Assembly: GCA_965243625.1 (NCBI GenBank)
Contig: CBDEVI010000002.1
Location: 321,396 to 385,395 of the forward strand
Origin: Chloroflexota bacterium
GTDB lineage: Bacteria > Chloroflexota > UBA11872
Direction of reading: 5' to 3'
Length of the DNA: 64,000 nt
In this document: positions 162 to 34,219 of the stretch, one piece after another
How positions within the stretch are numbered: the stretch's first letter is position 1
Layout of the letters: every line of letters begins with the position of its first letter
Position numbers and translations under genes: made by a program
The notes under the pieces: model-generated
The model's input: the letters and a program-made list of their open reading frames with translations, nothing else
What the model was told of the DNA's origin: nothing
Databases searched by the model: none

Positions 162-3100
162 TCATTCTGATCGTCCCGACTGCTGTAGCCGCGACCACAA
201 GCCAGCCGCAATCCCAGGCGGCACGTTGGAGTAGCGCTGCGTCCCATCATTGAACCGACGCGGCGGTGAGCCGCTGCACAGCATGGCGACGCGCTCGTAC
301 AGGCCGGGTAGTTGCGCGCCCAGCCGTACGGCCAACTCGCACCGCTTGGGTTCGTAGGCCACCAGCGGGACTCCAGTCCTCAGCGACTCCAGGTGCTTGA
401 CCAGGTGCACGGTTCCAAGGCGAGCCGTAGCTCGGCTATTCGTGGTAGGTGGGACAAAAGCGTAGGTGCGCGGAAAGGAGTCCGTACGGTAGGCGCCTGG
501 CATCGTCGATTGATCTGTAGGTGCCCAACGCCCGGTCGTGATATCGAACCTTTCAACGTCACCATCCGGCAGATGCCACTTAGAGAGTACGTCGAGAAGC
601 TCTGTGATGGGCGGTAAACCGGTCAGGAGCCGCGCGGCAGCATCCTCGACCGAATGCACCGCGAAGCCAAGTGCATTGGTCGCTGACTCGGTGACGTAGG
701 CGCGCTCCTGATGTCGGAGCCCTCGTACCACGACCTGCGTTGGGGCACCGTGGACCTCTTCGCGTGCGAGCGAGCCTCCAAGAGCCTTAACGCTCGCCTT
801 CAGCCGGTCCAATAGCCGCCGGGATCGGAACCCTGCCAGGACGGCGGTGTCACGGTCTGGCAGTCCGACCAAGACTGGAGGTCCGACCGCCCAACGCTCC
901 ACTCTGAGAGTGGTGCGGTTGAGCTTCAATTCGATATGGCCAAGTCCTGCAAGTGTCCGAGCGAACTCGGATGCGAACCACGGCCGATCGTCGGCATTTC
1001 GGGCGAGCGCAACAAACGATGCCCATGTGCCTTCGTTGAGCAGGGATATGGCATTTAGCAAGGTATCCAGGTCCACCAGTGACTCATTGTCGATTGCTTC
1101 CACTACGACCTGCGGCAAGCGTGAGATCGGGCTTTCGGAGGCTTTTGAGACTACGCGGGCGCGAGCCGACTTAGGTTTTCGGGTCGGGCCGTGCCACCGA
1201 ACGAGCCCGCAGTGCTTGCAGCTTCCGCGCCTGCGACGCTTCTCGTTGGCCACACCCATTCCAAGGTCCCAATGATGCGCACCACCATCGAAGCATGGAG
1301 GTGCCAACCCGCTCCGTGCCCGCGAACTTCGGATCGGCGGCTCCTCCAACTCGTCCTTGTGATCGGCGTGATCTAGGTGGGTTGGCGGTAGTGGACCGAT
1401 CTGCTCGGGCTTACTGTCGAGTTCCACAAATCCGCCAGCCACCATGGGTCCCGTGGAAGCGGCGGTGCTATCGACGGCGGAAATGGCAGCCCAACGAGAG
1501 TCTTCATGAATCGGACGCCGCAAGCTCTTGATGGGGTCAGGAGGACCCGCTGTTTCGGCTGAACGAAGGCGAAGCGTCGATGACGCTATGGAGCGGGGGG
1601 ATCGTCGTGCTGACTTGTCGAGTTCATAGACTGCAACTCGATACTCACCCGGCGGAACCTCATGTTCCCGCAGCTGGACGACCCCCGACCTCAGGAATTG
1701 CCCTAGAGGCACCTCTGCTGCTTCCTGTTGAATTGGGTGCAGCACGGCGCAGATCGTTTTCTCAGTTCCCACCGAAAACGAAACTTCTGGCGGGAGTGCT
1801 GCGTGCCACGTGTTGCGCCTGGGAAGTGCGAGTCCTCCCGCGAAAGCGATGGCGGCCGACGCGCTTGGAATGAGCGGCTGTAAGTCGTCGGATGCGACAT
1901 CCGGGGCAGCCATAAGCGCTACACCTCGAATGAGCGTCCACCCTTCTGGGCAACCGATCATCGATTGCGCGTCGAACCTCTTCCATCCGGGCCGCGCGCA
2001 CTGCCGCACAAACTCCAGGACATTTCGTTCAAGCCTTGGGCGAACCAACAGTGTGTGACTCGCCGCGAGCGAGGCCCGATCAACTTCGACATGCCACTGC
2101 TGCCCTTGGTCAAAGGCGAGGATCACAATCTGCCTGGCGCGTCGCGCAAGCTCTGTCCGGCCTTCGCGATCTCGTAGCGTCATATTCGCAAGCAGCACAT
2201 CCGCCATGGAGATGCGGTCGCTCTCATCGAATTCGCCCCAGCCATCCAGGCCGGAGTCGATCAGTGTGACCGCGTTGTTGCACAGCTTGAGGGCTGCCTG
2301 GGTGGCCCCATCCGCGCCCGCACCAAGCGCGAGGCTTCTGTTGAGTCGGCTATCGGAGATGCGGACACGAAGATCCAAGTCGAGCCGCGGCCTGGGATGT
2401 GATCGAACACTTGCGACCAACCTGATCGGGACTCGTCTGAGCCCCTGAGCATCGTTCTGTGCGACCACTCCATCCCATGACTCGAGTTCATGGCAGGCAA
2501 CGGCGGCTATTCGCTCGCGCACATCACCGGGTGATCGCCAAAGATGGCGGAGCGAAACGGAGACGCTTGACCGCGCGATCCACTCATCGAGCAGTCCAAC
2601 CATCTCGCTCACCGGAAATGACCCAGAAGCCAACTCGTAGTGGGCAAAGAGTTCTGGAAGACGTCGGCGATCCTCTTCTCGGATGAGTGCCTGTGAGATC
2701 GGGATACTGACGTGCACTCGCCTGTCGAATGCAAAGGCCGTGGGCCAGCCTAGTCGTCCGTCTTCGTCGGTCAGCAGCTTGTTCAGAGCGTCCCAGAAGA
2801 TGTGTGACTGGTCCGCGAAGCCGCGTTGGATTTCCCTTTTACGCCGCTTGTTCCCCGCGACTCCTAGTGCCTGAGCTAGCCGCGCGTAGTAGTTCGCCTG
2901 ACTGAACTGCTCGTCACTCGCCATTGACGACGCGACTAGCGCGAAGAATGCCAGCAGTCCCAAGAATGGCGGTGGACCACTTTGGCCGCTTCGTATCCAC
3001 CGGTCGAGGCTCCGGGTGTGGATGTAGAAGGTCTGGTAGCCCGAGTCTGCCGCCATGAGGGTTCGGCCCACGGCCTCACTAAACGCCGCTTGAGGGTCCG

Positions 3101-3242
3101 AGATTTGCTCGTAGACTTGCGCAGCTATGCTCTCAAGCTTGCTCTTATCTAAGTCCAGGTAAAGCGGTCGATTGCGCCACTGACCCTCAAGATAGTGATT
3201 TGCGATCGCGTCGTTCCATGTTTGGTAATCGGTCGCACCCAC
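162..3242 (-). CDS. Large hypothetical protein of 1026 aa. No Walker motifs. One C-x2-C (CKHC) element. Possibly defence- or island-associated.
   Basis: Single uninterrupted ORF in a high-GC context with coding-like composition. No recognisable catalytic motif could be assigned by eye. It sits immediately beside the repeat/IS-rich accessory region. Confidence 0.55.
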   Translation of the reverse strand: MGATDYQTWNDAIANHYLEGQWRNRPLYLDLDKSKLESIAAQVYEQISDPQAAFSEAVGRTLMAADSGYQTFYIHTRSLDRWIRSGQSGPPPFLGLLAFFALVASSMASDEQFSQANYYARLAQALGVAGNKRRKREIQRGFADQSHIFWDALNKLLTDEDGRLGWPTAFAFDRRVHVSIPISQALIREEDRRRLPELFAHYELASGSFPVSEMVGLLDEWIARSSVSVSLRHLWRSPGDVRERIAAVACHELESWDGVVAQNDAQGLRRVPIRLVASVRSHPRPRLDLDLRVRISDSRLNRSLALGAGADGATQAALKLCNNAVTLIDSGLDGWGEFDESDRISMADVLLANMTLRDREGRTELARRARQIVILAFDQGQQWHVEVDRASLAASHTLLVRPRLERNVLEFVRQCARPGWKRFDAQSMIGCPEGWTLIRGVALMAAPDVASDDLQPLIPSASAAIAFAGGLALPRRNTWHAALPPEVSFSVGTEKTICAVLHPIQQEAAEVPLGQFLRSGVVQLREHEVPPGEYRVAVYELDKSARRSPRSIASSTLRLRSAETAGPPDPIKSLRRPIHEDSRWAAISAVDSTAASTGPMVAGGFVELDSKPEQIGPLPPTHLDHADHKDELEEPPIRSSRARSGLAPPCFDGGAHHWDLGMGVANEKRRRRGSCKHCGLVRWHGPTRKPKSARARVVSKASESPISRLPQVVVEAIDNESLVDLDTLLNAISLLNEGTWASFVALARNADDRPWFASEFARTLAGLGHIELKLNRTTLRVERWAVGPPVLVGLPDRDTAVLAGFRSRRLLDRLKASVKALGGSLAREEVHGAPTQVVVRGLRHQERAYVTESATNALGFAVHSVEDAAARLLTGLPPITELLDVLSKWHLPDGDVERFDITTGRWAPTDQSTMPGAYRTDSFPRTYAFVPPTTNSRATARLGTVHLVKHLESLRTGVPLVAYEPKRCELAVRLGAQLPGLYERVAMLCSGSPPRRFNDGTQRYSNVPPGIAAGLWSRLQQSGRSE

Positions 3243-4610
3243 GAACTTCCTCCTCGTCGGAGTTGCCCGAATCTCGAAAGCTCACGACGGATGTTGGAGC
3301 GTTTTGCCCGCCTAGCTGTAGTTCCTACTCACTCTCATTGACTCCGCTAGGGCCACTCTGTTCAAGGAGAGTTCGTTCGACGGCTCCATCTAAGGAGGAC
3401 CTCTTCGCATATCGTAGCGTTCGGCCGACAATCGGCGGCGGCTGGTTGCTGGTCCAACGGATCGCAGCTGAGGACTGGTGGGTGGCCCGAGCGACGGTAA
3501 TAGCGATTTGCCGGCCGCGTGGAATCCTCGACTGCCGGCGGGATTTGCGCCGCTGTCTACCGGTGCACGTGCCGAGCACCATCGACGGAGTCGGGTGACT
3601 GGGAGGCGGGGGCGGCATAGGACTGCCTAGAGATTTGGGCCGCCCTGGTCGGTGATCGACGCGAGTGGGCAGCACCTCGGTTGCCGCCGCAGCGCCGCTT
3701 TCGACCCGCGAGGCGGCAGCATATTCGCGATGCGCGAGATCACCCGCCAAGTCGGTGCAATTCGAGGTCAAGCTATTGGGCGTAGCCCGCCGGCGGCGGC
3801 AATCACCTGAAACCTCGCTTGCCGGCTACTTAGCCCGCGCCGGGAATGGCCATAGGCATCGGCATGTACGGTGCTCTTGATTGCGCCTCGCTCTGGGCTA
3901 GCGCCGAGATTCTTCCTACTAGGGCCCCGGCATGGTGGCGTTCATCGGGCGAGTTGTTGTCTCGTCTGCGGCCCATCACCTCGACGTCAAGAGCCTGCTG
4001 ACCTACGCCATCGCCGGGTCTGCCCAAGGGCCCGATGTGCGACCGATGCGCGTCCGCGACGGTTGCCACAGGGAGCGATGGCTGTGTTGTAGACGGCGAC
4101 TACCAATCCATCCCCGAGGGGTACTAGCCCCCCGCTTCGCCCGCCTCTTGATTCCTCGCTTTACGGACTTGCGCAGCGATCTGGCCCTCTACCTCCGCAA
4201 CTACCACCACGACTGCGCCCGCACCGAGCGCAGGACTCGAAGACCCGCTCGCGTCCAGGAATTGGGTGCCGCCAAAACGCGACCGGAGCGGCCGTCGAGA
4301 CGAGGACGACCCGTCGCAATACCTCGGAAAGAGCACGAGCAAGTGGCACGCGCAGCGCCGGTGGGCGCCCAGCTAGAGGCGTGAGGAGGACTCGAACCGC
4401 CAAGCTTTGACCAAGGCCCGCCGTACGCAGACCAGGTGGGGTGGTTGCGCGGCTTCGCTGTGTGGCCCATGGCGTGGCATGCAGGCAGCCCCCGTCTGGT
4501 CTGAGGATTACGGAAAACTTGCTCGGCATCACGGAATCCAGACGGTTGAATGGACAAGAGAGTCCACTCAGCCCCTCTCGTCGAGCCAGGAGCACTAGGC
4601 AGCGTAGTCG

Positions 4611-5066
4611 ATGCCGGGACACCTCCCTGCTAAGTCCGGCCCCGGGCGCCGACCGCGGGCGGACTGGGAACGACGAGTGGAGCACGCGATTCGCCACCTG
4701 CGGAGCGCGTGGGATCTCCAGGACAACTCTCTGTGCCGACTTGCTTCGGTTCAGGACCGGGCTTCTCGCTCATACCGCGGGCGACCGGGCGCTGACGCGC
4801 TGGCCCTCCGCGATCTAGTTGAGGAGGCGGTCAGGCTGGCCGGCGATCTCCTAGCGCCCCCATACGAGACGTTTCTTCGCCGTTGGGTGGCAACGGGCAA
4901 TATCGCGGCCGTGGCGCGCGAGATGGGCAAGGACCGCTCGCACCTGTCGCGGGACTATCGACCGAGGGTTGTCATGGTCGTCACCGAAGTGTTCATGAGT
5001 CTCACGGGCAATGGTGAGCGCCGTAGGCGGAGGACGCTCCCGAGCCCTGCCCAGCGCGTCCATTAG
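4611..5066 (+). CDS. Small HTH protein, resembling sigma-70 region-4 / ECF-sigma C-terminal domain (copy 1 of a duplicated unit). The true start is probably internal, a GTG near 4680.
   Basis: Motif ...ALALRDLVEEAV...YETFLRRWVATGNIAAVAREMGKDRSHLSR... is a typical HTH. A paralogue at ~88% aa identity lies at 16097-16600 in the same position relative to the structured repeat. Confidence 0.4.
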   Translation: MPGHLPAKSGPGRRPRADWERRVEHAIRHLRSAWDLQDNSLCRLASVQDRASRSYRGRPGADALALRDLVEEAVRLAGDLLAPPYETFLRRWVATGNIAAVAREMGKDRSHLSRDYRPRVVMVVTEVFMSLTGNGERRRRRTLPSPAQRVH

Positions 5067-5307
5067 GGTCCGTCGCCGGCTAGGCATCGTCCCATTGCTC
5101 GGGAGCGGTAGGTCCTGACTGCACCCCAGTAACTCGATCAGCGACTCGACCGCGTCTTAGTGTCCCGCTGCAGAGCGACCCATCAATTGTGTGCGACGCC
5201 TCCAGGATCGATTCCCCTACAGCCGCCGCGCGAGACCTTGGTCGGAGCAGTGCTTTGGCGGTGGAGTAGGCGCCCACCGTAGGAACGTGGCTCGCAAATG
5301 GAAGTAC

Positions 5308-5500
5308 AATTAGGGGCGTATTGGACGCAGATTTCAAAAAAGAGCGACAGCAAGCCTTCAGGGCTAGCGCGACCGGGAAATCGGTGTCGCAAACCTGTTA
5401 GAGCGCGAATCTCGGCGAGTTTCGGACTTTGCGTGCTTCCAAGCTGGAAGCTGCGGATTCGAGTCCCATCCTCTGCTCCTAGTTCGGTCCAATCAGCCGA
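5308..5500 (+). repeat. Structured ~180-nt repeat, copy A (GGGGCGTATTGGACGCAGATTTC...GGATTCGAGTCCC). tRNA-like T-arm. Candidate ncRNA or integration (att) target.
   Basis: Near-identical to copies at 10048-10200 and 16868-17030. Internal hairpins (GCGACCGG/CGGTGTCGC, CTCGgCGAG) and a TTCGAG T-loop-like motif are conserved. Confidence 0.5.
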
Positions 5501-6317: not shown

Positions 6318-6590
6318 GTGGAGAATCGAATGAAGTTCAAAGAGGTCGTTTCAGCGAGTGACTGGAAGCATCGACCGCAGCGGTCACGGCGCATTAACCC
6401 TGAGATTCGCGAGATTGTCAGCCGCCTGGATAAGACATCGGGTGGGGAATGGGTGGTCATCAGCCTCACGGAGCAGGAGAAGAAACGCCAGCCCACGATT
6501 CGCGGCCGGATCCAATCGGCGGCAGCACAGATGGGCTTCAACGTAAGGTTTGAGATGCGGGCGGGTGACTTGGGCGTACAGAAGGCGTAG
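6318..6590 (+). CDS. Hypothetical small protein (~86 aa from ATG 6330) in a lower-GC patch.
   Basis: GGAG sits 9 nt upstream of ATG at 6330. The local GC drop (5850-6600) suggests foreign origin. No homology recognised. Confidence 0.3.
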   Translation: MENRMKFKEVVSASDWKHRPQRSRRINPEIREIVSRLDKTSGGEWVVISLTEQEKKRQPTIRGRIQSAAAQMGFNVRFEMRAGDLGVQKA

Positions 6591-7101
6591 GCCACCGTCG
6601 GCGGCGATTGGTCGTCGCAGTTAGACACGGTGTCAGGTCAGGGCTCGCACAGCGTTTAGCAGAGCGGATTCGAAACGGTCGAGCTTGCGTAATTCCATCG
6701 GGCTGTGGGTGCTCGGGTGTTTGCCCCTGGGGACTGGCGCACCTTGGGCTCGTGAAGTGGACGTTGCATGCCGGTGTGACCAAGGCGGTAAAGGCGTCGA
6801 GCTGGGGTGCTGCTATTGCTCGAACGGCTTCCGGCCGGGATGCAGGCTCAAGGGCAAGAACTTAGCTGGCGCCGGCGGGGAGCTCTATCGCCGGCGACGG
6901 GTGGACGATCGTTCGGCAGATTGCCGGGTCTTCGGCCAAGATCGCGTCGACCCGCCGAGCGCTACCAATCTCGCCGACTCCCGGAGTGCACTCCTTCTGT
7001 GGGTGAAGCCCTCGTGGCCGTTGCGAATGTGCGGAGTACCGACCACATGGCAGCAGCAATGCGGGAGGGCGAGGCAGGGCCGGCAGAAGCACCGGCTGAC
7101 T

Positions 7102-7305
7102 TTACGGACGATCACCTAGCGTAGTTGCACCACATCCATGAAGCGATGGGTGCCGAGCGCTCGGGGGATTCGGGCCTGGCGCAACGGCCACGAGGTCGGC
7201 AATGTCGTAGGCCGGGTAGTCCGGGGGCAGCCAGTCCCGCAAATCCGGGGGCAGCCGCAGGGTCTGGTTGGGCTCGTAGGGGCGGAAGGTCGTCGGCATG
7301 GGCAA
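7102..7305 (-). pseudogene. IS1182-family (IS5 superfamily) transposase, N-terminal fragment.
   Basis: Translation MPMPTTFRPYEPNQTLRLPPDLRDWLPPDYPAYDIADLV matches the conserved IS1182 N-terminus (Y-x-PNQ-x-LLP...L-x-DWLPED). The ORF terminates after 67 aa and the downstream frames are degenerate. Confidence 0.55.
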
Positions 7306-7410
7306 TCTGCTCAGTCAACGGCTTGACCGATGATCCCCTGTTTCTACGGCGCAGACTCCTAGGTCGGCGAAACAGCGCCGACCGCCTGTCCAAAGGCATA
7401 TGACAGAATT

Positions 7411-7881
7411 CTATTTTGCGCAGAATTCACTAACAGATGCGTAGACAATAACGCCGGTAAACAAGACTGAATAGATAGCTGGTAGCGCCTTCTCGACGTG
7501 GGTCAACTTCCAATATCTGTTGCTCTTGACACCCGTGGATAGCGGGTCCCACTCATCCGTAAAAAACGCAAATTCCAGCTTTGTCTCCAATTCGTGCAGC
7601 ACTCTAAACTTATTGCTGTTAAGCTGCTTATAGGATTGGATGATGACAACCCATGCACCAGACAAGCAAAGCCCGATTATGCCAATCACCAAAAGGACTA
7701 TAAATTCTGACACTTGTCCACTCCCGAACCTAAGTAGTGCGGCGATGAATACTATTAGTCCTGTAAGTAGACCAGCAAATAATCGGTTAGCCGAATCACG
7801 TCGTTGACTCACACGGTCAGCAAGCTCTGAGTGAAGTTTGTAAATCTCTAAGAGTTGATTCTGTGAGGAATCAGCCACCAT
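7411..7881 (-). CDS. Small membrane protein of 156 aa with 2-3 TM helices (SLATT-like pore/effector candidate). Translationally coupled to the upstream TIR-like gene.
   Basis: Hydrophobic segments LFAGLLTGLIVFIAALL, FIVLLVIGIIGLCLSGAWVVII and AIYSVLFTGVIVYASV. The start overlaps the TIR gene stop (TAATG). Low GC (~45%) against a ~68% background. Confidence 0.6.
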   Translation of the reverse strand: MVADSSQNQLLEIYKLHSELADRVSQRRDSANRLFAGLLTGLIVFIAALLRFGSGQVSEFIVLLVIGIIGLCLSGAWVVIIQSYKQLNSNKFRVLHELETKLEFAFFTDEWDPLSTGVKSNRYWKLTHVEKALPAIYSVLFTGVIVYASVSEFCAK

Positions 7882-8294
7882 TAGCTTCCAAGTCTACGAA
7901 TTGCCCCGACAATACTCTCGGTATTCCAGCCCACGATTTCATCGGCCGCTTCCTGTACTCGTTGTGAAATCCGCTTATTCCCCCATGGTCTGATAGCCAA
8001 GATCGGTTTTGGATCACTAAAGTCATTCTGGGCAATATCGATTTCCTTATCGATCCACTTGCTATACGACGCGTATACGCCAGCCAAGACGACGATAACA
8101 TGGCAAGGGCGCATGTGGTTCCATATGGCGGCTTCCAGCTCTTTGTCGGTTCCGCTAGTATGAACGGGGTCATCTTTGGGTACTGAGTAGTCGATATAGC
8201 TAAAATAGTTGCGATTGTCGAGGAGGTTCAGAAGGCCTTCGCGCGCGTCTGAATAGTTCCATGAATGGCTAATGAACAGATTGTAGGTCTTCAT
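7881..8294 (-). CDS. TIR-like domain protein (DUF1863 / ThsB-like), 137 aa.
   Basis: N-terminal MKTYNLFISHSWNYSD... and overall alpha/beta pattern typical of prokaryotic TIR-like DUF1863. Perfect AGGAGG RBS upstream. Low-GC islet. Confidence 0.75.
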   Translation of the reverse strand: MKTYNLFISHSWNYSDAREGLLNLLDNRNYFSYIDYSVPKDDPVHTSGTDKELEAAIWNHMRPCHVIVVLAGVYASYSKWIDKEIDIAQNDFSDPKPILAIRPWGNKRISQRVQEAADEIVGWNTESIVGAIRRLGS

Positions 8295-8412
8295 CCGAAT
8301 ATGCCTCCTGGCGTGGTGAGCGAGACGAGGAGCGCTCGCTTGGTTTGCGAGGTCTAATGTATACCGTACAGAATGCTAACACACCGCTACGCGAAACCGC
8401 CGAACGTCTAGG

Positions 8413-9600
8413 AAACCTTTGAACAACTGGGGCATTTGAGCACCAGGGCGCTTGGGCGGGGGCGGGATCGCTGCCTGGGGCGACGCGCTGGCTCGATCCG
8501 CCATGTCAACCTACCGCGAGGGTGTGATCGTCCCCGCGCGGGGCGCAGTGCGCCCGCTTAGGCCGGTGCGGTCCGTTCCGCCAGCAGCAGATTGGCGAAC
8601 CCGAACAACAGTCACAGCCGGGTGCGGTTCTTGGCCAAGCCCCGATACCGCACCTGCCCGTAGCCGAAGTGCCGCTTCACATACAGGAACGGATGCTCCA
8701 CCTTCGCCCGGATGGAAGCCTTGCGCTGCTCCGCCTCAGCGGCGGCGCTGCCGGGCGGCAAGCGCCGCCGCTTCCCCCGGCGTAACGCCACCTGCTAGTC
8801 GATCGCCCGCCCCCGATGCTCCGGACGCCGGGCGACCCCCTCGTACCCCGCATCGCCCCACACACGCGTCTCGGCGCCGTGCAGGAGCTGTGGCACTTGC
8901 GTGATATCCGCCATGTTGGCCGCCGTCGTCGCCACGCGGTGCACCAGGCCCGTCTCGGCGTCCACTCCGATGTGCGCCTTCATGCCGAAATACCACTGCT
9001 GGCCCTTCTTCACCTGATGCATCTCGGGGTCCCGCGCCTGCGCGCGGTTCTTCGTCGACGCCGGCGCGTCGAGGATCGTCGCGTCCACGATGGTCCCTTC
9101 GCGCAGCCGCAGGCCCTGCGACGCCAAGTGCTGCGTGATCTCCGCCAGCAGCCCCGCGCCCAGGTCGTGCCGTTCCAGCAGGTGCCGAAAATGGAGGATG
9201 GTGGTCTCATCGGGCCGCGGGTCCCGCGCGGTCAGCCCCACAAACCGCTGCACCGCCACGCTGTCGTAGAGTGCGTCTTCCATCGCCGGGTCGCTCAGGT
9301 TGTAGAACAACTGCACGCAGTGAATCCGCAGCATCACGGCCAGCGGGTAGGGCGACCGCCCGCACGCGCCCGCGGGGTAGACCGGGCGGATGCGCGATTC
9401 CAGCCGCGCCCACGGCAGCAGCGATGCCATGCGCTGGAGAAAGCGCTCCCGCCGCGTCTGGCGCGGCTGGCCGTCATACTCCACGTCGGCAAATGAGCGT
9501 TGCGGCAACATCAGGGCCCTCACCGGCTATCGGTCGCCCCTGAGCATAGGCCCTGCCCACGGGCCGCGACCCGCGACTAAATCAGAGGTTTCCTAGGGCC
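8413..9600 (-). mobile_element. IS5-family insertion sequence of ~1.19 kb with ~15-bp terminal inverted repeats. The transposase is inactivated.
   Basis: Inverted-repeat cores CTAGGAAACCTTTGA (8413-8427) and CTAGGAAACCTCTGA (reverse strand, 9582-9596), one mismatch. Internal DDE transposase reading frame. Confidence 0.65.
8480..9523 (-). pseudogene. IS5-family DDE transposase disrupted by in-frame stops.
   Basis: Translation carries ...GRAID*QVALRRGKRRRLP... with TAG in place of the conserved Trp, and ...VEHPFLYVKRHFGYGQVRYRGLAKNRTRL*LLFGFANLL.... These are conserved IS5 C-terminal motifs interrupted by stops. Confidence 0.65.
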
Positions 9601-10047
9601 GATCACGTCGACCGGCAACGCACATAACCGGCACCTGCGCGCCGAGGGCGCCAGACACGACTGCCACCCGCCGCGAGCGCCAGCCCGGATGGACGGCGGG
9701 CTCAGGAGGATGCGCGGGACACCGGTGTGCGGCGGCTCCCGACGCCATCAACCCGAGCCGCTTCACGGGGACACTCCCGGCGAAGCACGGACATGCGGCA
9801 GACCCTTTGGCGATCTGAAGAAACTTGAGTGACAAGCCGTCGCCACAGCGCTCCGGTTCGTCCATCTCTTCCCGCCCCGGAGCGCGGTTGCCGCGGCCGC
9901 GCCTGGTGCGAACGCGGCCGCTTGGCCGCCGGTCCTCCATAGCAGTTGTCTTGAGTGGCCCTCGTGCGAGCCGGGTCACGCAGGCGGTGGAGAGGTCGCT
10001 TGCGGACGCCCTCCTTGGAGAAATGACGCTCGCGCAAAGGGCGTACA

Positions 10048-10200
10048 ATTGGGTGCGTATTGGACGCAGATTTCACAAAAGAGCGAGAGCAAGCCTTCAG
10101 GGCCAGCGCGGCCGGGAAAACGGTGTCGCAAACCTGTTAGAGCGTGAATTTCGGCGAGTTTCGGACTTTGCGTGCTTCCAAGCACGATGTGCCCTGCTGG
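10048..10200 (+). repeat. Structured repeat copy B (5' part only; T-arm absent).
   Basis: ~90% identical to copies A and C over ~150 nt, then diverges at ...TTCCAAGC. Confidence 0.5.
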
Positions 10201-10443: not shown

Positions 10444-13400
10444 CTAGGCAGTCTTCTGACTAATGCACACCACCTGGGCTCGGGCTAGATCGCGGAACAT
10501 GTCTGCCGTGGAAGGTTGGCAGGTGAAGACTAGAATCTGATTTGTCCTCGATAGCTCTGCGAAAGCCTGGACGGTCATCCGGGATCGCCCTGGGTCAAAG
10601 TTGACGAGCGCCTCGTCGACCACGACCGGAAGGCCTTGAGCGTGTTCACCAAACTCCCGAATCAGGCCGAAGCGTAAAGCAAGATATAGCTGTTCTCTAG
10701 TTCCCCGGCTCAACTGTTGTGGATGCTTGTTCCCGCCCCGGGAGTCGGTCACCACAATCGTTTGCTCTCCAATGGGCGCAAAGAGACGCCTATATCGTTG
10801 ACCGGTGACACTCGAAAAAAACTCCTGAGCGTGACGGATAACGCTTGGCTGGCGTTCCTGTTCGAACTTTTGCCTTGTCCTTTCAAGAAGCGTCTCGGCA
10901 ATAGTGAGCTGGGACCACTCGCGCGCGTACTCTCGCAACTGCTCTAACAGGATGCTACGGCGAATGCGTAGAGCCGATGATTCCTCTTCGTCCGTCAGTT
11001 GCATCAGCGCGTTGTCGATGCCACCCCGTTCTTCTCGCAACGCGTTGCACCGGTCGTCTATTTCCGCTCGCTGCTCTGACAACCGAACAGACTCCCCGCT
11101 GAGCTGACTGGGGTCAGATCCTTCCAGGGACTTTCGAAAGGCTGCCAACCTTTCGAAGGGGCCGCAGAGACGCTCCAAGCTACGTAGGTGCTCGTCCCGC
11201 TGCCGTTCTAGCTGCACTCGTTCGAGGTGCTGTCGCGCCCGGCGGCGAAACTCCTCGGGATCGACCGTGCCGCCGGACACCAATAGAGTTGAGAGTTCCT
11301 GCTCCACCGCCTGCAAACGCTGCTCCTGCCGTTCCACTTGACGCCGGTAATCTTCTGCCGACTCTTTGGCCTGCTCCCGCCGGAAGCGCATTTCTAGCGC
11401 GTCGTCCAGTCTTTGAATGAGCTCGTCGGCCACGGCTGCCAGTTGCCGCTGGTCATCCGGATTTAGCTGCAGGTTGTGCGTCATGGCCAACGATTCCACC
11501 TGATTGCGGAACTCGGCGATGTCGCGCTCAATGGCCGCTACCCGTTCGCGCATCCGGCGGGCTTCGTTCAGTGAGACACGGGTCGCGTCGATGCGGGCCA
11601 GAAAGCTTGTCATCGTGTCTGCCGTCAATGATTCATCCAGGTCGCGCTCCCGCAGCCATTGCTGCCACTCCCGTTTAGCTTCCCGTGCGGAGACCTTGGC
11701 AGCTTCGTATTCCTTGGTCGCGGCTTCGACCAGCAGCTCTTGCGACTTCTCTCGACGGGATGTTTCTTCAACCCGGGCCCTTACACCCGTCCATGTGTTC
11801 AGCGCGGTTCGCGCCGATTCCAGATCCGCTTCTAACAACTCCAGCGCGGCAGTGTTCGGCTGATCTGTGTGGCCCAGAGCTGCTGTCAACTGCATCAGCG
11901 ATTGCAGACGTTTTTCTGCAGCCGCTTCCGCGTCGCTAGTCTGTCGCTCGAGCTCAGTGGTCATGGGTGCCGGAATAGCGATCGGGGACGCCCTTGCCGA
12001 CAAGTAAAGGATGGCCACCGTGGTCAGCAGAGCCAACCCGCTGGCGATGCCCAGGGGTAAAGCTCCTTCACCAAGTAACACCGCGACTACGATTAGGGCG
12101 GCACCGACCAGTCCCAGCAGAACAAGCAAGAGCGAATTGGGACTTTTGGCGGTCTGAGCAGCTAATTCTCGACTGCTCGCCAACGTGTTGAGCTGGCGCA
12201 GCAGGTTCTCGTGGTTCTGTCGCTCCCTCTCATATTCGTCGAGCTGCCCCCTGGCTGCACGCAAGGCATTGCTGCGCTCCGTCAGCGTGGCAGAGTCAAG
12301 CGGAGGGGGCTCTAGGGGCATGTCCTCTCGCGCTTGTTGCACTTCCGCTTGGTGGCTCTGCAGCACTCGCCGCTCTTGGTCAAACACGACTCTCGCTTGT
12401 TGGAAGCGTTCGCGACGCTCAGCTATCTGCTGCTTCAATCGGTCGGCCTGACTTCGGACGACTATTGACGTGTCCAGGGCCACTACGTCTCCTTCGTCCC
12501 ACCCATGGCCGACTTCTGCCAGCCCTTCCGATAGGTCGGCTTCGAGCCTCCGTAGCTCCGACTTCCGCTCCGGCAAGTCTCGGACGGAGCTATCGAAACT
12601 GCTTCGGGCGCGGCGAATACCCTCGACAATCCCCGCATCGTCTAAGAGGGCTTCGTCGTGAATGGCGACTGAGGCGGATTCCTTTGTTTGCTGGAGCTGA
12701 CTGCGCCCTTCTTCGAGGTCCTTCCTTGCTTGCCTAGCCTGGTCCTCGAAGCTTTCGAGGCGCGTAGCGGCGTTTTCCGGAAAATGCTCGAACCGAGGCA
12801 TGCCGCTGAGCCGCGATTCGCAATTGGTTAGCGCGACCCAGCTCTCCCAGCCGTCGAGAAGCTTGTCGATTTCGGACCGGCGAGAGTCTAGCCGCAGGAG
12901 TCTGTCTTTGGCGGATTCAAGTTCCTTGCCTATCTCAAGCCTGCGAACATTGAGTTGCCCGAATCGGTCCGCATTTCCCTCGACCGCCTTCAGTTGGCGG
13001 TCTACGTCCCTCAGTGCGTTCAGCAGCTTCGGCAAAGCCTGAAGGCTGCCCCTGCGCTTATAGATGCTGCCTTTCCGCTCGAGAAGTGACTTCTCAAGTC
13101 GGGCCATTCCGGGAACACCCTGGCCGGCGCTATAGATGCTGGAGCCCTGCAATGCGGCCGCCTCATTAAGTTCATCAAGACTAAAGGTGAAAACGGTCTT
13201 GAAGAACTCGGGTGTGGCGGGGCCTACCAACTGGCGCAATTGAGTCTCGGCGTTAGCCGTGGGACCAGTTGGGGCAGTGACCTGCAAGCCGCCACGCGCA
13301 CCGGAATACCGCTCAACAACGTATGACCCATTGACGTCGTCGGATAGTGTGATCCGGCCTCCGTGGCGCCCCCCAGTGAGTGGTGGGAAGTGGCTGTTGA

Positions 13401-13563
13401 ACCTAGTCGGGAAGCCGAAGAGAATTGCCCGAATGAATGCCAAGAGGGTGCTCTTGCCGGCCTCGTTCGGACCGTAGAGAACTGTGACCGATCCTTGCAT
13501 CGGCCCAATGGTCTTGTGGTGGAAGTGGCCAAATCCATCGACATACAACTCGTGTAGCCTCAT
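10444..13563 (-). CDS. yhaN: SbcC-like AAA ATPase with long coiled coil and an internal pair of TM helices (YhaN / COG4717-like).
   Basis: N-terminal Walker A GPNEAGKST. C-terminal signature/Walker B/D-loop (...VVVDEALVNFD...). Central hydrophobic LLLVLLGLVGAALIVVAVLLG...LALLTTVAILYL. 4-nt overlap with the upstream phosphoesterase gene. Confidence 0.7.
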   Translation of the reverse strand: MRLHELYVDGFGHFHHKTIGPMQGSVTVLYGPNEAGKSTLLAFIRAILFGFPTRFNSHFPPLTGGRHGGRITLSDDVNGSYVVERYSGARGGLQVTAPTGPTANAETQLRQLVGPATPEFFKTVFTFSLDELNEAAALQGSSIYSAGQGVPGMARLEKSLLERKGSIYKRRGSLQALPKLLNALRDVDRQLKAVEGNADRFGQLNVRRLEIGKELESAKDRLLRLDSRRSEIDKLLDGWESWVALTNCESRLSGMPRFEHFPENAATRLESFEDQARQARKDLEEGRSQLQQTKESASVAIHDEALLDDAGIVEGIRRARSSFDSSVRDLPERKSELRRLEADLSEGLAEVGHGWDEGDVVALDTSIVVRSQADRLKQQIAERRERFQQARVVFDQERRVLQSHQAEVQQAREDMPLEPPPLDSATLTERSNALRAARGQLDEYERERQNHENLLRQLNTLASSRELAAQTAKSPNSLLLVLLGLVGAALIVVAVLLGEGALPLGIASGLALLTTVAILYLSARASPIAIPAPMTTELERQTSDAEAAAEKRLQSLMQLTAALGHTDQPNTAALELLEADLESARTALNTWTGVRARVEETSRREKSQELLVEAATKEYEAAKVSAREAKREWQQWLRERDLDESLTADTMTSFLARIDATRVSLNEARRMRERVAAIERDIAEFRNQVESLAMTHNLQLNPDDQRQLAAVADELIQRLDDALEMRFRREQAKESAEDYRRQVERQEQRLQAVEQELSTLLVSGGTVDPEEFRRRARQHLERVQLERQRDEHLRSLERLCGPFERLAAFRKSLEGSDPSQLSGESVRLSEQRAEIDDRCNALREERGGIDNALMQLTDEEESSALRIRRSILLEQLREYAREWSQLTIAETLLERTRQKFEQERQPSVIRHAQEFFSSVTGQRYRRLFAPIGEQTIVVTDSRGGNKHPQQLSRGTREQLYLALRFGLIREFGEHAQGLPVVVDEALVNFDPGRSRMTVQAFAELSRTNQILVFTCQPSTADMFRDLARAQVVCISQKTA

Positions 13564-14870
13564 GCCTCATCCTCGTCGTCCACCAGAGCAGCGAGGCATT
13601 CGTCCTCAGCGGCAGCAAGCAGGTTTCGGAGTTCGCCGTCCGACGGCAATAGTTCCCTCAGGTACGGACTGGCGTTCGACTTGAGATACAACTCCCGCAG
13701 CAACTCCCTTAGCTCGGCTAAGGCGCTAGGGCTCGCCTGCATTTCGCTTGCAAGCCGAACGAGGTCGCCGGTGAAGTCTTCTTGCCGGGTCACCAGTTCT
13801 CGGTCTACCGACGATGCGGTACCTACTTGAATCCGCTCACACCACAGCCAGGGCTCGACACTTGCGTGAAGTTCGTTGAGTTGCTCAATGATGGCGTTCA
13901 CGTTCTCCGGCTGGCGCAGGAATCGGTGCATTGGTCCGCGACCTGTCAGTCTTAGCCGGAGAACAACTGAGTGACCCGCGGCCGCCTGAATCGCGGCATT
14001 GGTCAACTCGTCAATAGCGTCCAATACCTGATGCTCTGTGTCCAACCCAGAAATATCTGATTCCCGGGTGTCCCAACGGACGACATCCGTAGTGCGGAAT
14101 TCCAGTCGTGTCACGCGGTCTTGGTCGATCTCCACAAGGTATACACCGTGCGCACCTCGCTCGTTGGCGTGACGACCCTGAGGGTTCCCGGGGTAGACGA
14201 CAGCTGGATTCGTTTGCCTCAGTACCTGCCGAGTGTGGACGTGGCCCAATGCCCAATAGTCGATGTCGGTGCCTGTGAGGTCGTCAACGGAGCAAGGCGA
14301 GTAGGAATCGTGGTTGGGGTTTCCGCCGACGTTTGCGTGTAGCAAGCCAATGTTGAGGCCGTCGCCCCGCTTGGCCCCGCGAAAGAGCGGCGAAAGGTCT
14401 TGGCGCACCTCTCGCCGAGGGAAGCTGATCCCGTACACCATCGCTCGTTCCGGATCTTCAGAAAATACAGGTGCACCTGTCATCTCCGAGCCGAAGCGAA
14501 CGCACCCCGTCGGTAGTGCCAACTGTGCTTCCCAACCATCTAACGGGTCGTGGTTCCCGTGGCAGATGAAGGAACGGATCCCGGCCGCGTCCAGTTGCCG
14601 CAGACCCGCAACGAATCTCAACTGTGCACGCAGGCTGCGGTCCGCTCCGTCATAGATATCGCCCGCTATCAGCAGCGCGTCGACTTGCTCGCGAATGCAC
14701 AGACCTACGATGTTCTCGTAGGCGGCAAAGGTTGCACGGTGCAGCGTTTCACTGACAAGTTCGGGTGCTTCGCTTCGAAGGCCGAGGAGTGGGCTGTCTA
14801 GATGCAAGTCTGCGGCGTGTACGAAGCGAATCCCTGGCATACCTATCAACTCGAACGCTCCGGCCCGCAC
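13560..14870 (-). CDS. yhaO: SbcD/Mre11-like calcineurin-type metallophosphoesterase (YhaO-like).
   Basis: Motifs FVHAADLHLD, GDIYD, GNHD, GHVH. Operonic with the SbcC-like ATPase. Confidence 0.75.
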   Translation of the reverse strand: MRAGAFELIGMPGIRFVHAADLHLDSPLLGLRSEAPELVSETLHRATFAAYENIVGLCIREQVDALLIAGDIYDGADRSLRAQLRFVAGLRQLDAAGIRSFICHGNHDPLDGWEAQLALPTGCVRFGSEMTGAPVFSEDPERAMVYGISFPRREVRQDLSPLFRGAKRGDGLNIGLLHANVGGNPNHDSYSPCSVDDLTGTDIDYWALGHVHTRQVLRQTNPAVVYPGNPQGRHANERGAHGVYLVEIDQDRVTRLEFRTTDVVRWDTRESDISGLDTEHQVLDAIDELTNAAIQAAAGHSVVLRLRLTGRGPMHRFLRQPENVNAIIEQLNELHASVEPWLWCERIQVGTASSVDRELVTRQEDFTGDLVRLASEMQASPSALAELRELLRELYLKSNASPYLRELLPSDGELRNLLAAAEDECLAALVDDEDEA

Positions 14871-15374: not shown

Positions 15375-16096
15375 CAGGACTAGGACAAAGCGTTCAGACT
15401 CGTCGTAGGTGCGGGGTGTGTAGTGTCGGGTGCGCCGGTGCCGTAGGCCGCGTGCCGTGCAGCGCCGGCACGCAACTCGCCAGGTGCATCGTCAAGAGAT
15501 CACAATGCTGGCAAAGGACCCTTCGTTCGGTGGTCACAGGCTGGATCGTCAGTCTGGGTCCTGTCTGGGCACTTGCGGCGCCTATGGGTGGCTGATCTTG
15601 GGCAAGAGGCCCGGCCACGCTGGATGTTTGACCTCTGGCAAGTTTCTCGGCAGGACGCCGATGGCACACGATCGTGCGCAGAGCCTTCACGAGGCACTCT
15701 GTAGCTGTGGGGCGGTCGTGGTGTGCGCCACAAACTGAGGAGGTCCAGCCCAGGCCGTCACGAGCAACAGTGGATAGAAGAATCGTCCGGCAACACCCGA
15801 GACGCTAGGAGCATTGGCGTCGTGCGGCTTTCAGTTGCGCCCTTGCCTCCGCTCGAAGTGACGGTCCTCCGGTGCCTCCGCCATCCGCCCTGCCTAGGCT
15901 CTCTAGGACCGAAACTCGGGCGTTTTGCTCGGCCTGTCCACTCAGAAGAGATCCAATAGCAATCATCTCGCACGCACTGTCCGCTGACGACGAAGCGTGA
16001 GTAGCGACCGGCGGCCAGCAGAGATGGTCCGATCAGTCAGAGAACTACGGAAACCTTGCTAGCCATCGCCACGGTAGGTTCGTTGAATGGACAAGG

Positions 16097-16600
16097 GTGT
16101 CCAGTCGATCAAACTCTTTCGTCGAAGGGCGCGAACCATTGGCGTCCGCGCTTGGACACACCGCAGGGTCAGGCCCCGGGCGCCGGCCTCGGGCAGACTG
16201 GGAACGACGAGTGGAGCACGCGATTCGCCACCTGCGGAGCGCTTGGGATCTCCAGGACAACTCCCTTTGCCGGATTGCCGCAGTGCAGGAACGCGCATCT
16301 CACGTCTACCGCGGGCGACCGGGCGCTGAAGCGCTGGCCCTCCGCGATCTAGTCGAGGAGGCGGTCAGTCTGGCCCGCGATCTTCTAGCGACCCCATACG
16401 AGACATTTCTTCGCCGTTGGGTGGCGACGGGCAATATCGCGGCCGTGGCGCGCGAGATGGGCAAGGACCGCTCGCACTTGTCGCGGGACTATCGACCCAG
16501 GGTTGTCATGGTGGTGACCGACGTGTTCATGAGTCTCACGGGCAATGGTGACCGCGGGAGCCGCAAGACGCGCCGGAGCCGGGCGCATCGCGTCCGATAG
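16097..16600 (+). CDS. Small HTH protein (copy 2 of the duplicated unit). The true start is probably internal.
   Basis: Paralogue of the 4611-5066 ORF. Sits in the same position upstream of structured repeat copy C. Confidence 0.4.
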   Translation: MSSRSNSFVEGREPLASALGHTAGSGPGRRPRADWERRVEHAIRHLRSAWDLQDNSLCRIAAVQERASHVYRGRPGAEALALRDLVEEAVSLARDLLATPYETFLRRWVATGNIAAVAREMGKDRSHLSRDYRPRVVMVVTDVFMSLTGNGDRGSRKTRRSRAHRVR

Positions 16601-16867
16601 GGTCTGTCGCCGGACTGAAATCGCCCGCGTTGCCCAGAAGCGGTCGGCCCTGACTGCGCCCCGATAACTCGATCAGCGACTCGGCCGCGCCTCAGTGAGC
16701 CGCTGCAGATCGCCCCATGAACTGTGCACGCCGCCTCCGGAGCCATTTCTGCTACAGCCGCAGTGCGAGACCTCGGTTGGAGCAGTGCTTCGGCGGCGGA
16801 GGACGAGTCGCCCCGTAGGCGCCCTCCGTAGGAACGTGGCTCGCGAATAAGAGTACAATTGGGGGCG

Positions 16868-17030
16868 TATTGGACGCAGATTTCACAAAAGAGCGACAGC
16901 AAGCCTTCAGGGCTAGCGCGACCGGGAAATCGGTGTCGCAAACCTGTTAGAGCGCGAATCTCGGCGAGTTTCGGACTTTGCGTGCTTCCAAGCTGGATGT
17001 CGCGGGTTCGAGCCCCGTCCCCCGCTCCTA
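16868..17030 (+). repeat. Structured repeat copy C, the most complete copy. 5' GGGGGCG..., with a 3' tRNA-like T-arm GCGGGTTCGAGCCCCGT followed by CCCCCGCTCC.
   Basis: Sequence identity to copies A and B. T-loop-like TTCGAGC flanked by a 5-bp stem. 5' and 3' ends can pair as an acceptor-like stem (GGGGCG / CGCUCC with G-U). Confidence 0.5.
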
Positions 17031-33814: not shown

Positions 33815-33959
33815 GTTGCCGACGGTACCCCACATTCGCCGCATGCGACGTGCTCGATTCTGGCTGGCCGTTCCGCGGCCCCGCCCTGCCGGCTGCTTGA
33901 CAGGCCTCGATGCCGCCGGAAATACTCCGCGCCAACTGAATACCCAAACACCGTTCGTT

Positions 33960-34125
33960 CAGGTGCCCACCTAGGGAGAATAGGGAAGGCGGTGAGAATC
34001 CGCCGCGGTTGCGCCACTGTAAGCGGGATTTTGGAGCCGGAACCCACTGTCGACCGTCAGATGGGAAGGGCCCGGCAGACCACCTAAGCCCGTAAGCCAG
34101 GAGACCTGCCTGAGCGAGAGGTGAC
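33960..34125 (+). promoter_or_regulatory. Cobalamin (AdoCbl) riboswitch upstream of the B12 transporter/salvage operon.
   Basis: Conserved elements GGGAAGG, GGTGAGAATCC, GCCACTG and B12-box AAGCCAGGAGACCTGCC in the canonical order. Confidence 0.75.
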
Positions 34126-34219
34126 CACTCTCCGCCATAGAGAGGGTCCTCGCGGTCAGGTCGTTGCACCTGGCACACGGAAGCCCAGGTCTCCAGCGGA
34201 GAGCCGCTGGAGGTGAGGC

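Follow-up and report, generated by a model that had tools for sequence, protein, structure and literature searches.

What is the function of two small, overlapping genes of low GC content that lie between remnants of insertion sequences (IS) in a GC-rich Chloroflexota genome? The pair occupies positions 7411-8294 of the 64,000-nucleotide stretch of contig CBDEVI010000002.1 analyzed here (the window), and encodes a TIR-domain protein followed by a small membrane protein that belongs to the Pfam family 8xMP. An earlier, sequence-only reading had proposed a minimal Thoeris-like or TIR-SLATT defense system. We consider it likely, with a probability of roughly 60%, that the pair is a horizontally acquired two-gene Thoeris-type anti-phage signaling module in which a signal made by the TIR protein gates the 8xMP membrane effector. 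The observations that carry this reading are an intact and coupled pair of genes, a ThsB-class TIR protein that keeps the putative catalytic glutamate, a partner of the 8xMP family with three transmembrane (TM) segments, an operon kept across many phyla, and defense and mobile genes around it in the related loci. The features of the pair are as follows.

7881-8294 (-): thsB-like TIR gene; 137 aa, stand-alone PF08937 TIR domain with candidate catalytic Glu84 in SKWIDKEI
7411-7881 (-): putative effector gene; 156 aa, three-TM protein of the Pfam family 8xMP (PF24838)
7879-7883 (-): TAATG junction; base 7881 belongs both to the stop codon of TIR (TAA) and to the start codon of 8xMP (ATG)
8304-8309 (-): Shine-Dalgarno sequence (AGGAGG), located 9 nt before the start codon of TIR
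7300-8350: low-GC island bearing both genes, 44-52% GC

Both open reading frames (ORFs) were found where they had first been placed, at 7881-8294 and 7411-7881. They are full length, retain every invariant residue of their families, and share the TAATG overlap, an arrangement of codons that indicates translational coupling of TIR and 8xMP. The published gene call for the 8xMP gene (P0006) comprises 100 aa and starts at the internal GTG codon 57, which leaves out the conserved N-terminal helix and TM1. The 156-aa ORF is backed by all 25 homologues in the alignment, and the annotation of the window is corrected here from 100 aa to 156 aa. The GC content of 7411-8294 is 46.6% compared to 65.2% for the window, close to the earlier estimate of ~45% in a ~68% GC genome, and in 300-nt windows between 7300 and 8200 it goes down to 44-50%. 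The GC content at third codon positions (GC3) is 0.56 and 0.48 in the two genes, and 0.65-0.89 in neighboring genes. Because GC and GC3 are far below the values of the window and the neighbors, the composition clearly marks both genes as foreign and horizontally acquired, and as un-ameliorated towards the host.

The product of the first gene matches Pfam ThsB_TIR (PF08937, the former DUF1863) with 58.7 bits (cut-off 21.2), and the PADLOC ThsB models match it with E-values down to 1.4e-9. The TIR-like (DUF1863) assignment of the sequence-only reading was therefore borne out, and the FISHSW motif that it had pointed out is present. Homologues of the protein number thousands, the best of them being 60-76% identical and ~136 aa long. 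An alignment of 25 homologues contains 31 invariant columns including F7, H10, S11, W12, and E84. The catalytic glutamate, which the earlier reading had singled out as the residue to check, was sought by sequence alignment: E84, invariant in the 25 homologues, aligns with the Glu of PsTIR (E79), BcThsB, and EcTIR, which are among the characterized ThsB proteins that could be placed in the alignment, every one of which has its Glu at this position, and also with the W..EL Glu of PDB 8btn. In Pseudomonas PsTIR, the E79Q exchange abolishes defense. An AlphaFold2 (AF2) model of the TIR protein has a predicted local distance difference test score (pLDDT) of 85, and its fold matches in PDB include nucleoside/CMP N-glycosidases at the top, a B. 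cereus TIR, ThsB proteins (including EcThsB), and MTH538. Judged by sequence, gene 1 codes for a TIR of the ThsB class, with the catalytic glutamate in place.

The second protein matches PF24838, named in Pfam the 'octameric membrane protein family', with 120.3 bits (cut-off 30) over model positions 1-134 of 136. The same model is hit by each of the 26 aligned homologues, and the alignment of the family has 27 invariant columns. The family is represented by 3127 sequences of 50%-identity clusters at E <= 1e-3, nearly all of which are stand-alone proteins of ~150 aa. The partner had been described as a small protein with two to three TM helices; the small multi-TM character stands, and the hydrophobic segments number three, at about 34-52, 56-82, and 132-152. 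Three long helices are also seen in the AF2 monomer model (pLDDT 82.6). Conservation is distributed unevenly along the protein: positions conserved at >=90% make up 70% of the N-terminal helix and 46% of the TM2-TM3 linker, and 11-18% of the TM helices. The N-terminal helix and the linker, both predicted to be cytoplasmic, together hold 12 K/R residues.

The membrane protein is not a SLATT protein, and the label TIR-SLATT had to be abandoned. The comparison with NCBIfam SLATT_1 gave 13 bits against a cut-off of 41, none of the 26 family members matched any SLATT Pfam model at E <= 1, and hhalign returned a probability of 0.1% against the SLATT/DUF4231 protein of a related locus (L065). A relationship to DUF2270, the family of the Thoeris effector ThsF, found no support in Pfam either (0/26 members matching PF10028 at E <= 1). 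Models for SIR2, SLOG, Macro, caspase, DUF2270, DUF6650, SLATT, CMP-hydrolase, ion-channel, and HIT did not match the partner, which hit PF24838 only and lies outside the experimentally validated Thoeris effector families (ThsA, ThsC-ThsL). A sequence search of PDB with 8xMP found no relative, and a search of the literature on 8xMP or PF24838 found nothing relevant. In the 150 best representatives of the family, 8xMP is never fused to a TIR domain; a single fusion was seen, the 859-aa protein P0248, in which 8xMP is joined to an AAA_21/SMC_N ATPase.

Is the pair conserved elsewhere? We scanned one genome per species with the 8xMP protein alone as query, which yielded 173 relatives, and analyzed the best 80 loci (L001-L080). 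A TIR gene of the family described above lies directly upstream and on the same strand in 65 of these 80 loci, selected by 8xMP only. Most related loci have a 4-nt ATGA overlap between TIR and 8xMP, compared to the 1-nt overlap in TAATG of the window. When seven close relatives of the TIR protein were looked up independently, six adjoined a PF24838 gene and one adjoined a caspase gene. Both counts agree with the expectation of the sequence-only reading that the membrane gene is conserved beside TIR homologues. The distances of TIR and 8xMP correlate modestly but significantly (Mantel r = 0.32, a value reached by 0/2000 permutations), which fits co-inheritance with some partner shuffling.

The neighbors of the related loci include BREX BrxC-like proteins, N6/N4 methyltransferases, Eco57I-type restriction-modification systems, AbiEii, AAA_21 ATPases, relaxase/TrwB, IS elements with many transposases, and a second Thoeris system. 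In such surroundings the two genes might instead form a toxin-antitoxin or addiction pair that stabilizes mobile DNA, with a holin-like 8xMP toxin restrained by the TIR-like protein and no sensing of phage. The genes are indeed small and overlapping, they are always below host GC and stand beside IS elements, relaxases, and other mobile genes, and a few 8xMP members give weak, sub-threshold matches to holins. Nevertheless, we regard an addiction pair as very improbable: conservation of the catalytic Glu, which is invariant, and of the complete set of ThsB motifs over 25 or more homologues argues for an enzyme and not a mere binder, 15 of the 80 8xMP loci have no TIR gene although an unguarded toxin would not be tolerable, and the same TIRs serve effectors that are not toxin-like, such as the caspase.

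Some related loci carry more than one TIR gene. Tandem arrays are present in L065 (4500-6456), with the order TIR, SLATT/DUF4231, TIR, 8xMP, and in L079 (4054-6450), with the order TIR, Peptidase_C14 caspase, TIR, 8xMP. In 13 loci, a second and divergent ThsB_TIR gene (~135 aa, motif IFVSFEYDRDNDLKN) is located just downstream of 8xMP in convergent orientation, for example at 6494-6898(-) in L004, 6501-6908(-) in L021, and 6552-6917(-) in L006. This second TIR is ~30% identical to the Pseudomonas type IV TIR, and some of the loci that carry it have no upstream TIR.

Which of the known Thoeris systems is closest to the pair? The nearest characterized enzyme is the EcTIR of E. coli 328, to which the window TIR is 57% identical. 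EcTIR belongs to type IV Thoeris, which consists of ThsB and the caspase-like ThsE and uses as signal N7-cADPR, an isomer of cyclic ADP-ribose (cADPR); N7-cADPR was purified from infected-cell lysate for EcTIR and activates the caspase in trans (Rousset et al., bioRxiv 10.1101/2024.10.24.620036). A TIR from Halarsenatibacter, 66% identical to that of the window, adjoins a Peptidase_C14 gene, which is the type IV configuration. The pair of the window thus shares with type IV the TIR family and the catalytic Glu, but has a 156-aa membrane protein in place of the soluble arginine-specific protease, and no caspase gene was found in the window region. The sequence-only reading had compared the pair to a type II Thoeris system without the Macro or SLOG domain. 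Type II combines ThsB with a TM-Macro effector (signal His-ADPR) and does resemble the pair in joining a TIR to a membrane-disrupting effector, and it is correct that the partner contains neither Macro nor SLOG. However, type II is not the closest comparison, as the window TIR has no detectable similarity to the type II ThsB of B. amyloliquefaciens Y2 (BLASTP E 1.3).

Type V (effector ThsF, DUF2270, three TM) and type VII (effector ThsH, SLATT) also place a small multi-TM effector beside ThsB. Their effectors are predicted to oligomerize as rings or filaments whose positively charged pockets on the cytoplasmic side accommodate a cADPR isomer, and the logic that we propose for 8xMP is alike. 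Differences are that 8xMP has no sequence relationship to DUF2270 or SLATT, and that the TIRs of the verified type V systems fall in other clusters than the window TIR.

A configuration of this kind has been predicted before. The survey of TIR operons by Yirmiya et al. (bioRxiv 10.64898/2025.12.03.692087, December 2025) describes 29 putative Thoeris types, of which types V-XI were verified, and its Table S1 lists at least 100 TIRs with '3TM' as the putative associated effector. The label is absent from the main text, which cites 'additional putative effectors' in Fig. 1C, and the 3TM class is a bioinformatic prediction without a named Pfam family, signal, or mechanism (bioRxiv 10.64898/2025.12.03.692087). 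We compared the window TIR with the 3TM-linked TIRs in 15 rows of Table S1 and found that they belong to the same family, with 44-63% identity; a TIR gene paired with a three-TM gene, as in the window, corresponds to the 3TM class (TIR clusters 2734565194 / 2556961318). One listed 3TM TIR, ga0242689_13051122, matches the TIR of one of our related loci, L055, at 128/128 residues (100% identity), and the gene downstream of the L055 TIR encodes 8xMP. On the strength of this identity, the '3TM' effector of Yirmiya et al. is the Pfam 8xMP family, at least in the L055 case. The window pair has the same TIR family, the same partner family, and the same two-gene operon as this putative class, with no structural difference. 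It belongs to a Thoeris configuration already predicted, and the configuration itself is not new.

These comparisons lead us to propose the following course of events for the Thoeris-type module. Upon phage infection, the TIR protein would turn NAD+ into a cyclic ADP-ribose isomer, which would diffuse to 8xMP, taken as a homo-oligomer. The signal would bind the conserved K/R-rich cytoplasmic surface made up of the N-terminal helix and the TM2-TM3 linker, and its binding would open or rearrange the 8xMP assembly, leading to loss of membrane integrity and abortion of the infection. Signal binding and membrane breach by 8xMP are proposed by analogy with ThsF and ThsH. The Thoeris-like logic of the sequence-only reading, a TIR signal generator and a membrane effector in one operon, is supported by our analysis. 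Because the nearest characterized enzyme, EcTIR, makes N7-cADPR, we favor this molecule as the signal, tentatively and with somewhat less confidence than we would need to call it probable. Canonical cADPR is the second candidate and the alternative, since it is what TIRs from the same sequence cluster produce in types VII and VIII.

Effectors found beside TIRs of this clade are caspase, SLATT, CMP hydrolase, and 3TM/8xMP proteins. Because the clade is swapped among effectors that are unrelated to each other, and because the type IV product acts in trans, a diffusible NAD+-derived signal is likelier than direct contact between TIR and 8xMP. On this account, the direct TIR-to-TM coupling or toxin/immunity pair that had been offered at first is the less likely arrangement. 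Direct contact would be required if the roles were reversed, with the TIR protein as an NAD+-depleting executioner and 8xMP as a membrane sensor, anchor, or regulator. Such an arrangement would be in keeping with the many bacterial TIRs that act as effectors with NADase activity in CBASS, Pycsar, pAgo, and AVAST systems, with the lack of a recognizable ligand-binding domain in 8xMP, and with the tight coupling of the genes, which is compatible with a stoichiometric complex. We nevertheless judge it quite improbable: the nearest characterized relatives, 57-66% identical, make a signal and through it act in trans on a distinct effector, the exchange of the clade among unrelated effectors is hard to square with a specific protein-protein interface, and the Mantel correlation is only 0.32.

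A bolder version of the signaling module is that 8xMP represents the receptor-effector of an uncharacterized Thoeris type. It would either sense N7-cADPR through a ligand site that has no relation to the sites in caspase, SLOG, Macro, SLATT, and DUF2270, the known Thoeris effectors, or respond to a TIR product beyond the five known signals, and one tight, low-GC clade of the module would have spread over at least nine phyla, many of its carriers being sponge symbionts. We consider this version distinctly unlikely. If the module is borne out by tests, TIR and 8xMP would make up a validated Thoeris type with a very small (~150 aa) membrane effector. As 8xMP has no recognizable nucleotide-binding domain, it would then exemplify a novel mode of sensing cADPR-type signals. 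Moreover, given the close relationship of the TIR to EcTIR, an N7-cADPR synthase, the pair is a convenient system in which to ask if effectors as unrelated as caspase and 8xMP answer to a single signal, or if slight changes in the TIR lead to a different product chemistry.

Several points weigh against a signaling module. None of the '3TM' systems was chosen for experiments in the TIR operon survey, and half of the systems tested there gave no defense (bioRxiv 10.64898/2025.12.03.692087). The identity of the signal is extrapolated from related enzymes, of which those in types VII and VIII make cADPR, no nucleotide-binding domain is recognizable in 8xMP, and its octameric or otherwise oligomeric state is inferred from the Pfam name only. 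The 15 of 80 loci without an upstream TIR, some of them in BREX-like clusters, indicate that 8xMP can have other partners. Finally, the module may be silent in this genome, as an IS5 element lies 113 nt upstream of the TIR start and a consensus scan for promoters and terminators around the operon, which covered promoters of the sigma-70-like type only, found none that bracket it.

With regard to the other partners, two of the TIR-less loci (L034, 5986-7671; L044, 2539-7656) have 8xMP between a BrxC-like gene upstream and an AAA_21/AAA_15 ATPase gene that follows immediately. 8xMP may serve other sensors too.

The flanks of the module contain the following elements.

8408-9596 (-): IS5-family element with both 15-nt terminal inverted repeats, at 8408-8422 and 9582-9596, 93% complementary
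7189-7302 (-): N-terminal remnant of an IS1182-family transposase, ~38 codons, just downstream of the 8xMP gene

The IS5 transposase is a single frame at 8609-9523(-), broken by an in-frame TAG at 8795-8797. It matches NCBIfam NF033581 with 252 bits (cut-off 140), and plasmid matches to the element carry IS5-family annotation. Together with the repeats, the match and the TAG codon confirm the earlier description of a complete but inactivated IS5-family element with ~15-bp inverted repeats. On the other side, residues 2-39 of the ORF at 7102-7305 are 53% identical (pairwise E 6e-12) to residues 18-55 of WP_327249257.1, a Streptomyces protein annotated as IS1182 family transposase that was reached via a weak DNA match. 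The ORF has no match in Pfam, NCBIfam, or tblastn, so that the IS1182-family N-terminal fragment claimed at 7102-7305 is upheld over ~38 residues only and without support from hidden Markov models. The picture of a foreign module bracketed by IS elements holds, with IS5 on one side and the IS1182-like remnant on the other, and in this genome the module is defense cargo or a passenger between them. A perfect 16-nt inverted repeat (7010-7025 / 7180-7195, spacer 154 nt) begins exactly where the IS1182 similarity ends.

The pair could accordingly be an inert passenger in this genome, mobilized with the IS elements, deprived of its promoter when IS5 inserted, and unexpressed. The position of IS5 and of the IS1182 remnant on either side, the lack of a sigma-70-like promoter upstream of TIR, the un-ameliorated GC3, and the published annotation, which calls only a truncated 100-aa second gene, would all agree with this. 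We think it unlikely, though, because both ORFs are full length with every invariant family residue, neither the Shine-Dalgarno sequence nor the coupling junction is damaged, and the promoter scan extends to one type of promoter only.

The low GC content is not peculiar to the copy in the window. The module has a lower GC content than its surroundings in 60/60 loci with usable flanks (mean 48.5% versus 60.0%), the difference exceeding 5 points in 53 of them, and the DNA identity between its copies is only 65-70%. Because the GC content is lower in all 60 loci despite this divergence, low GC is a persistent property of the module and not merely a sign of recent transfer.

Close relatives of the module are present in metagenome-assembled genomes (MAGs) of at least nine phyla. 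The taxa comprise Chloroflexota/SAR202, Acidobacteriota, Latescibacterota, Cyanobacteria, Alpha- and Gammaproteobacteria, Spirochaetia, Bacteroidota/Rhodothermales, and Binatia, a list that is biased by narrow search patterns and by the genomes represented and is to be read as a lead and not as a statistic. Many of the relatives come from sponge-symbiont bin sets or lineages, for example Ca. Poriferihabitaceae, and four different Mb-scale contigs of the ENA assembly ERZ25072076 (L083, L084, L086, and L088) have one copy each. No relatives were found among the viral contigs of IMG/VR. One could suspect a function in host association instead of defense, such as the production of a nucleotide by TIR and its release through a channel formed by 8xMP in communities associated with sponges. 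The concentration of close relatives in MAGs of these phyla, many of them sponge-symbiont, and the copies in four different genomes of one assembly would suit such a role, which we hold to be extremely improbable: the taxon list carries the bias just described, members of the TIR clade are also known from E. coli and Halarsenatibacter, as parts of proven or typical Thoeris systems, and the neighbors are defense and mobile genes and not symbiosis genes.

Within the window, the module is surrounded by IS elements, an SbcCD-like pair, and ORFs with no family assignment. We found no tRNA gene or Rfam element near the island that could mark an integration site. The whole 64 kb contains no tRNA genes, and a cobalamin riboswitch (RF00174, 104 bits) at 33944-34127(+) is the sole Rfam match. 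A 148-nt direct repeat (5297-5444 / 10036-10183) was considered as the borders (att sites) of the island and rejected, as it belongs to a three-copy family of ~1-kb repeats that is also present at 16036-17030. This family has two full copies (4499-5481 and 16036-17030; 83% identical) and a 184-nt partial copy at 10007-10190; partial repeat copies lie on both sides of the island region without being peculiar to it. The full copies hold the paralogous ORFs 4611-5066 (151 aa) and 16097-16600 (167 aa); a Pfam scan of the first gave no match. In the lower-GC (~61%) left part of the window, beside the island, a 1026-aa ORF at 162-3242(-) is likewise without a Pfam match. The SbcCD/YhaON-like pair at 10444-14870(-), with ~59% GC below the rest of the window, consists of a 436-aa calcineurin-like phosphoesterase (13560-14870) overlapping a 1039-aa AAA_27/SMC-like ATPase (10444-13563), and the ATPase gives weak PADLOC matches to mad3 and LmuB.

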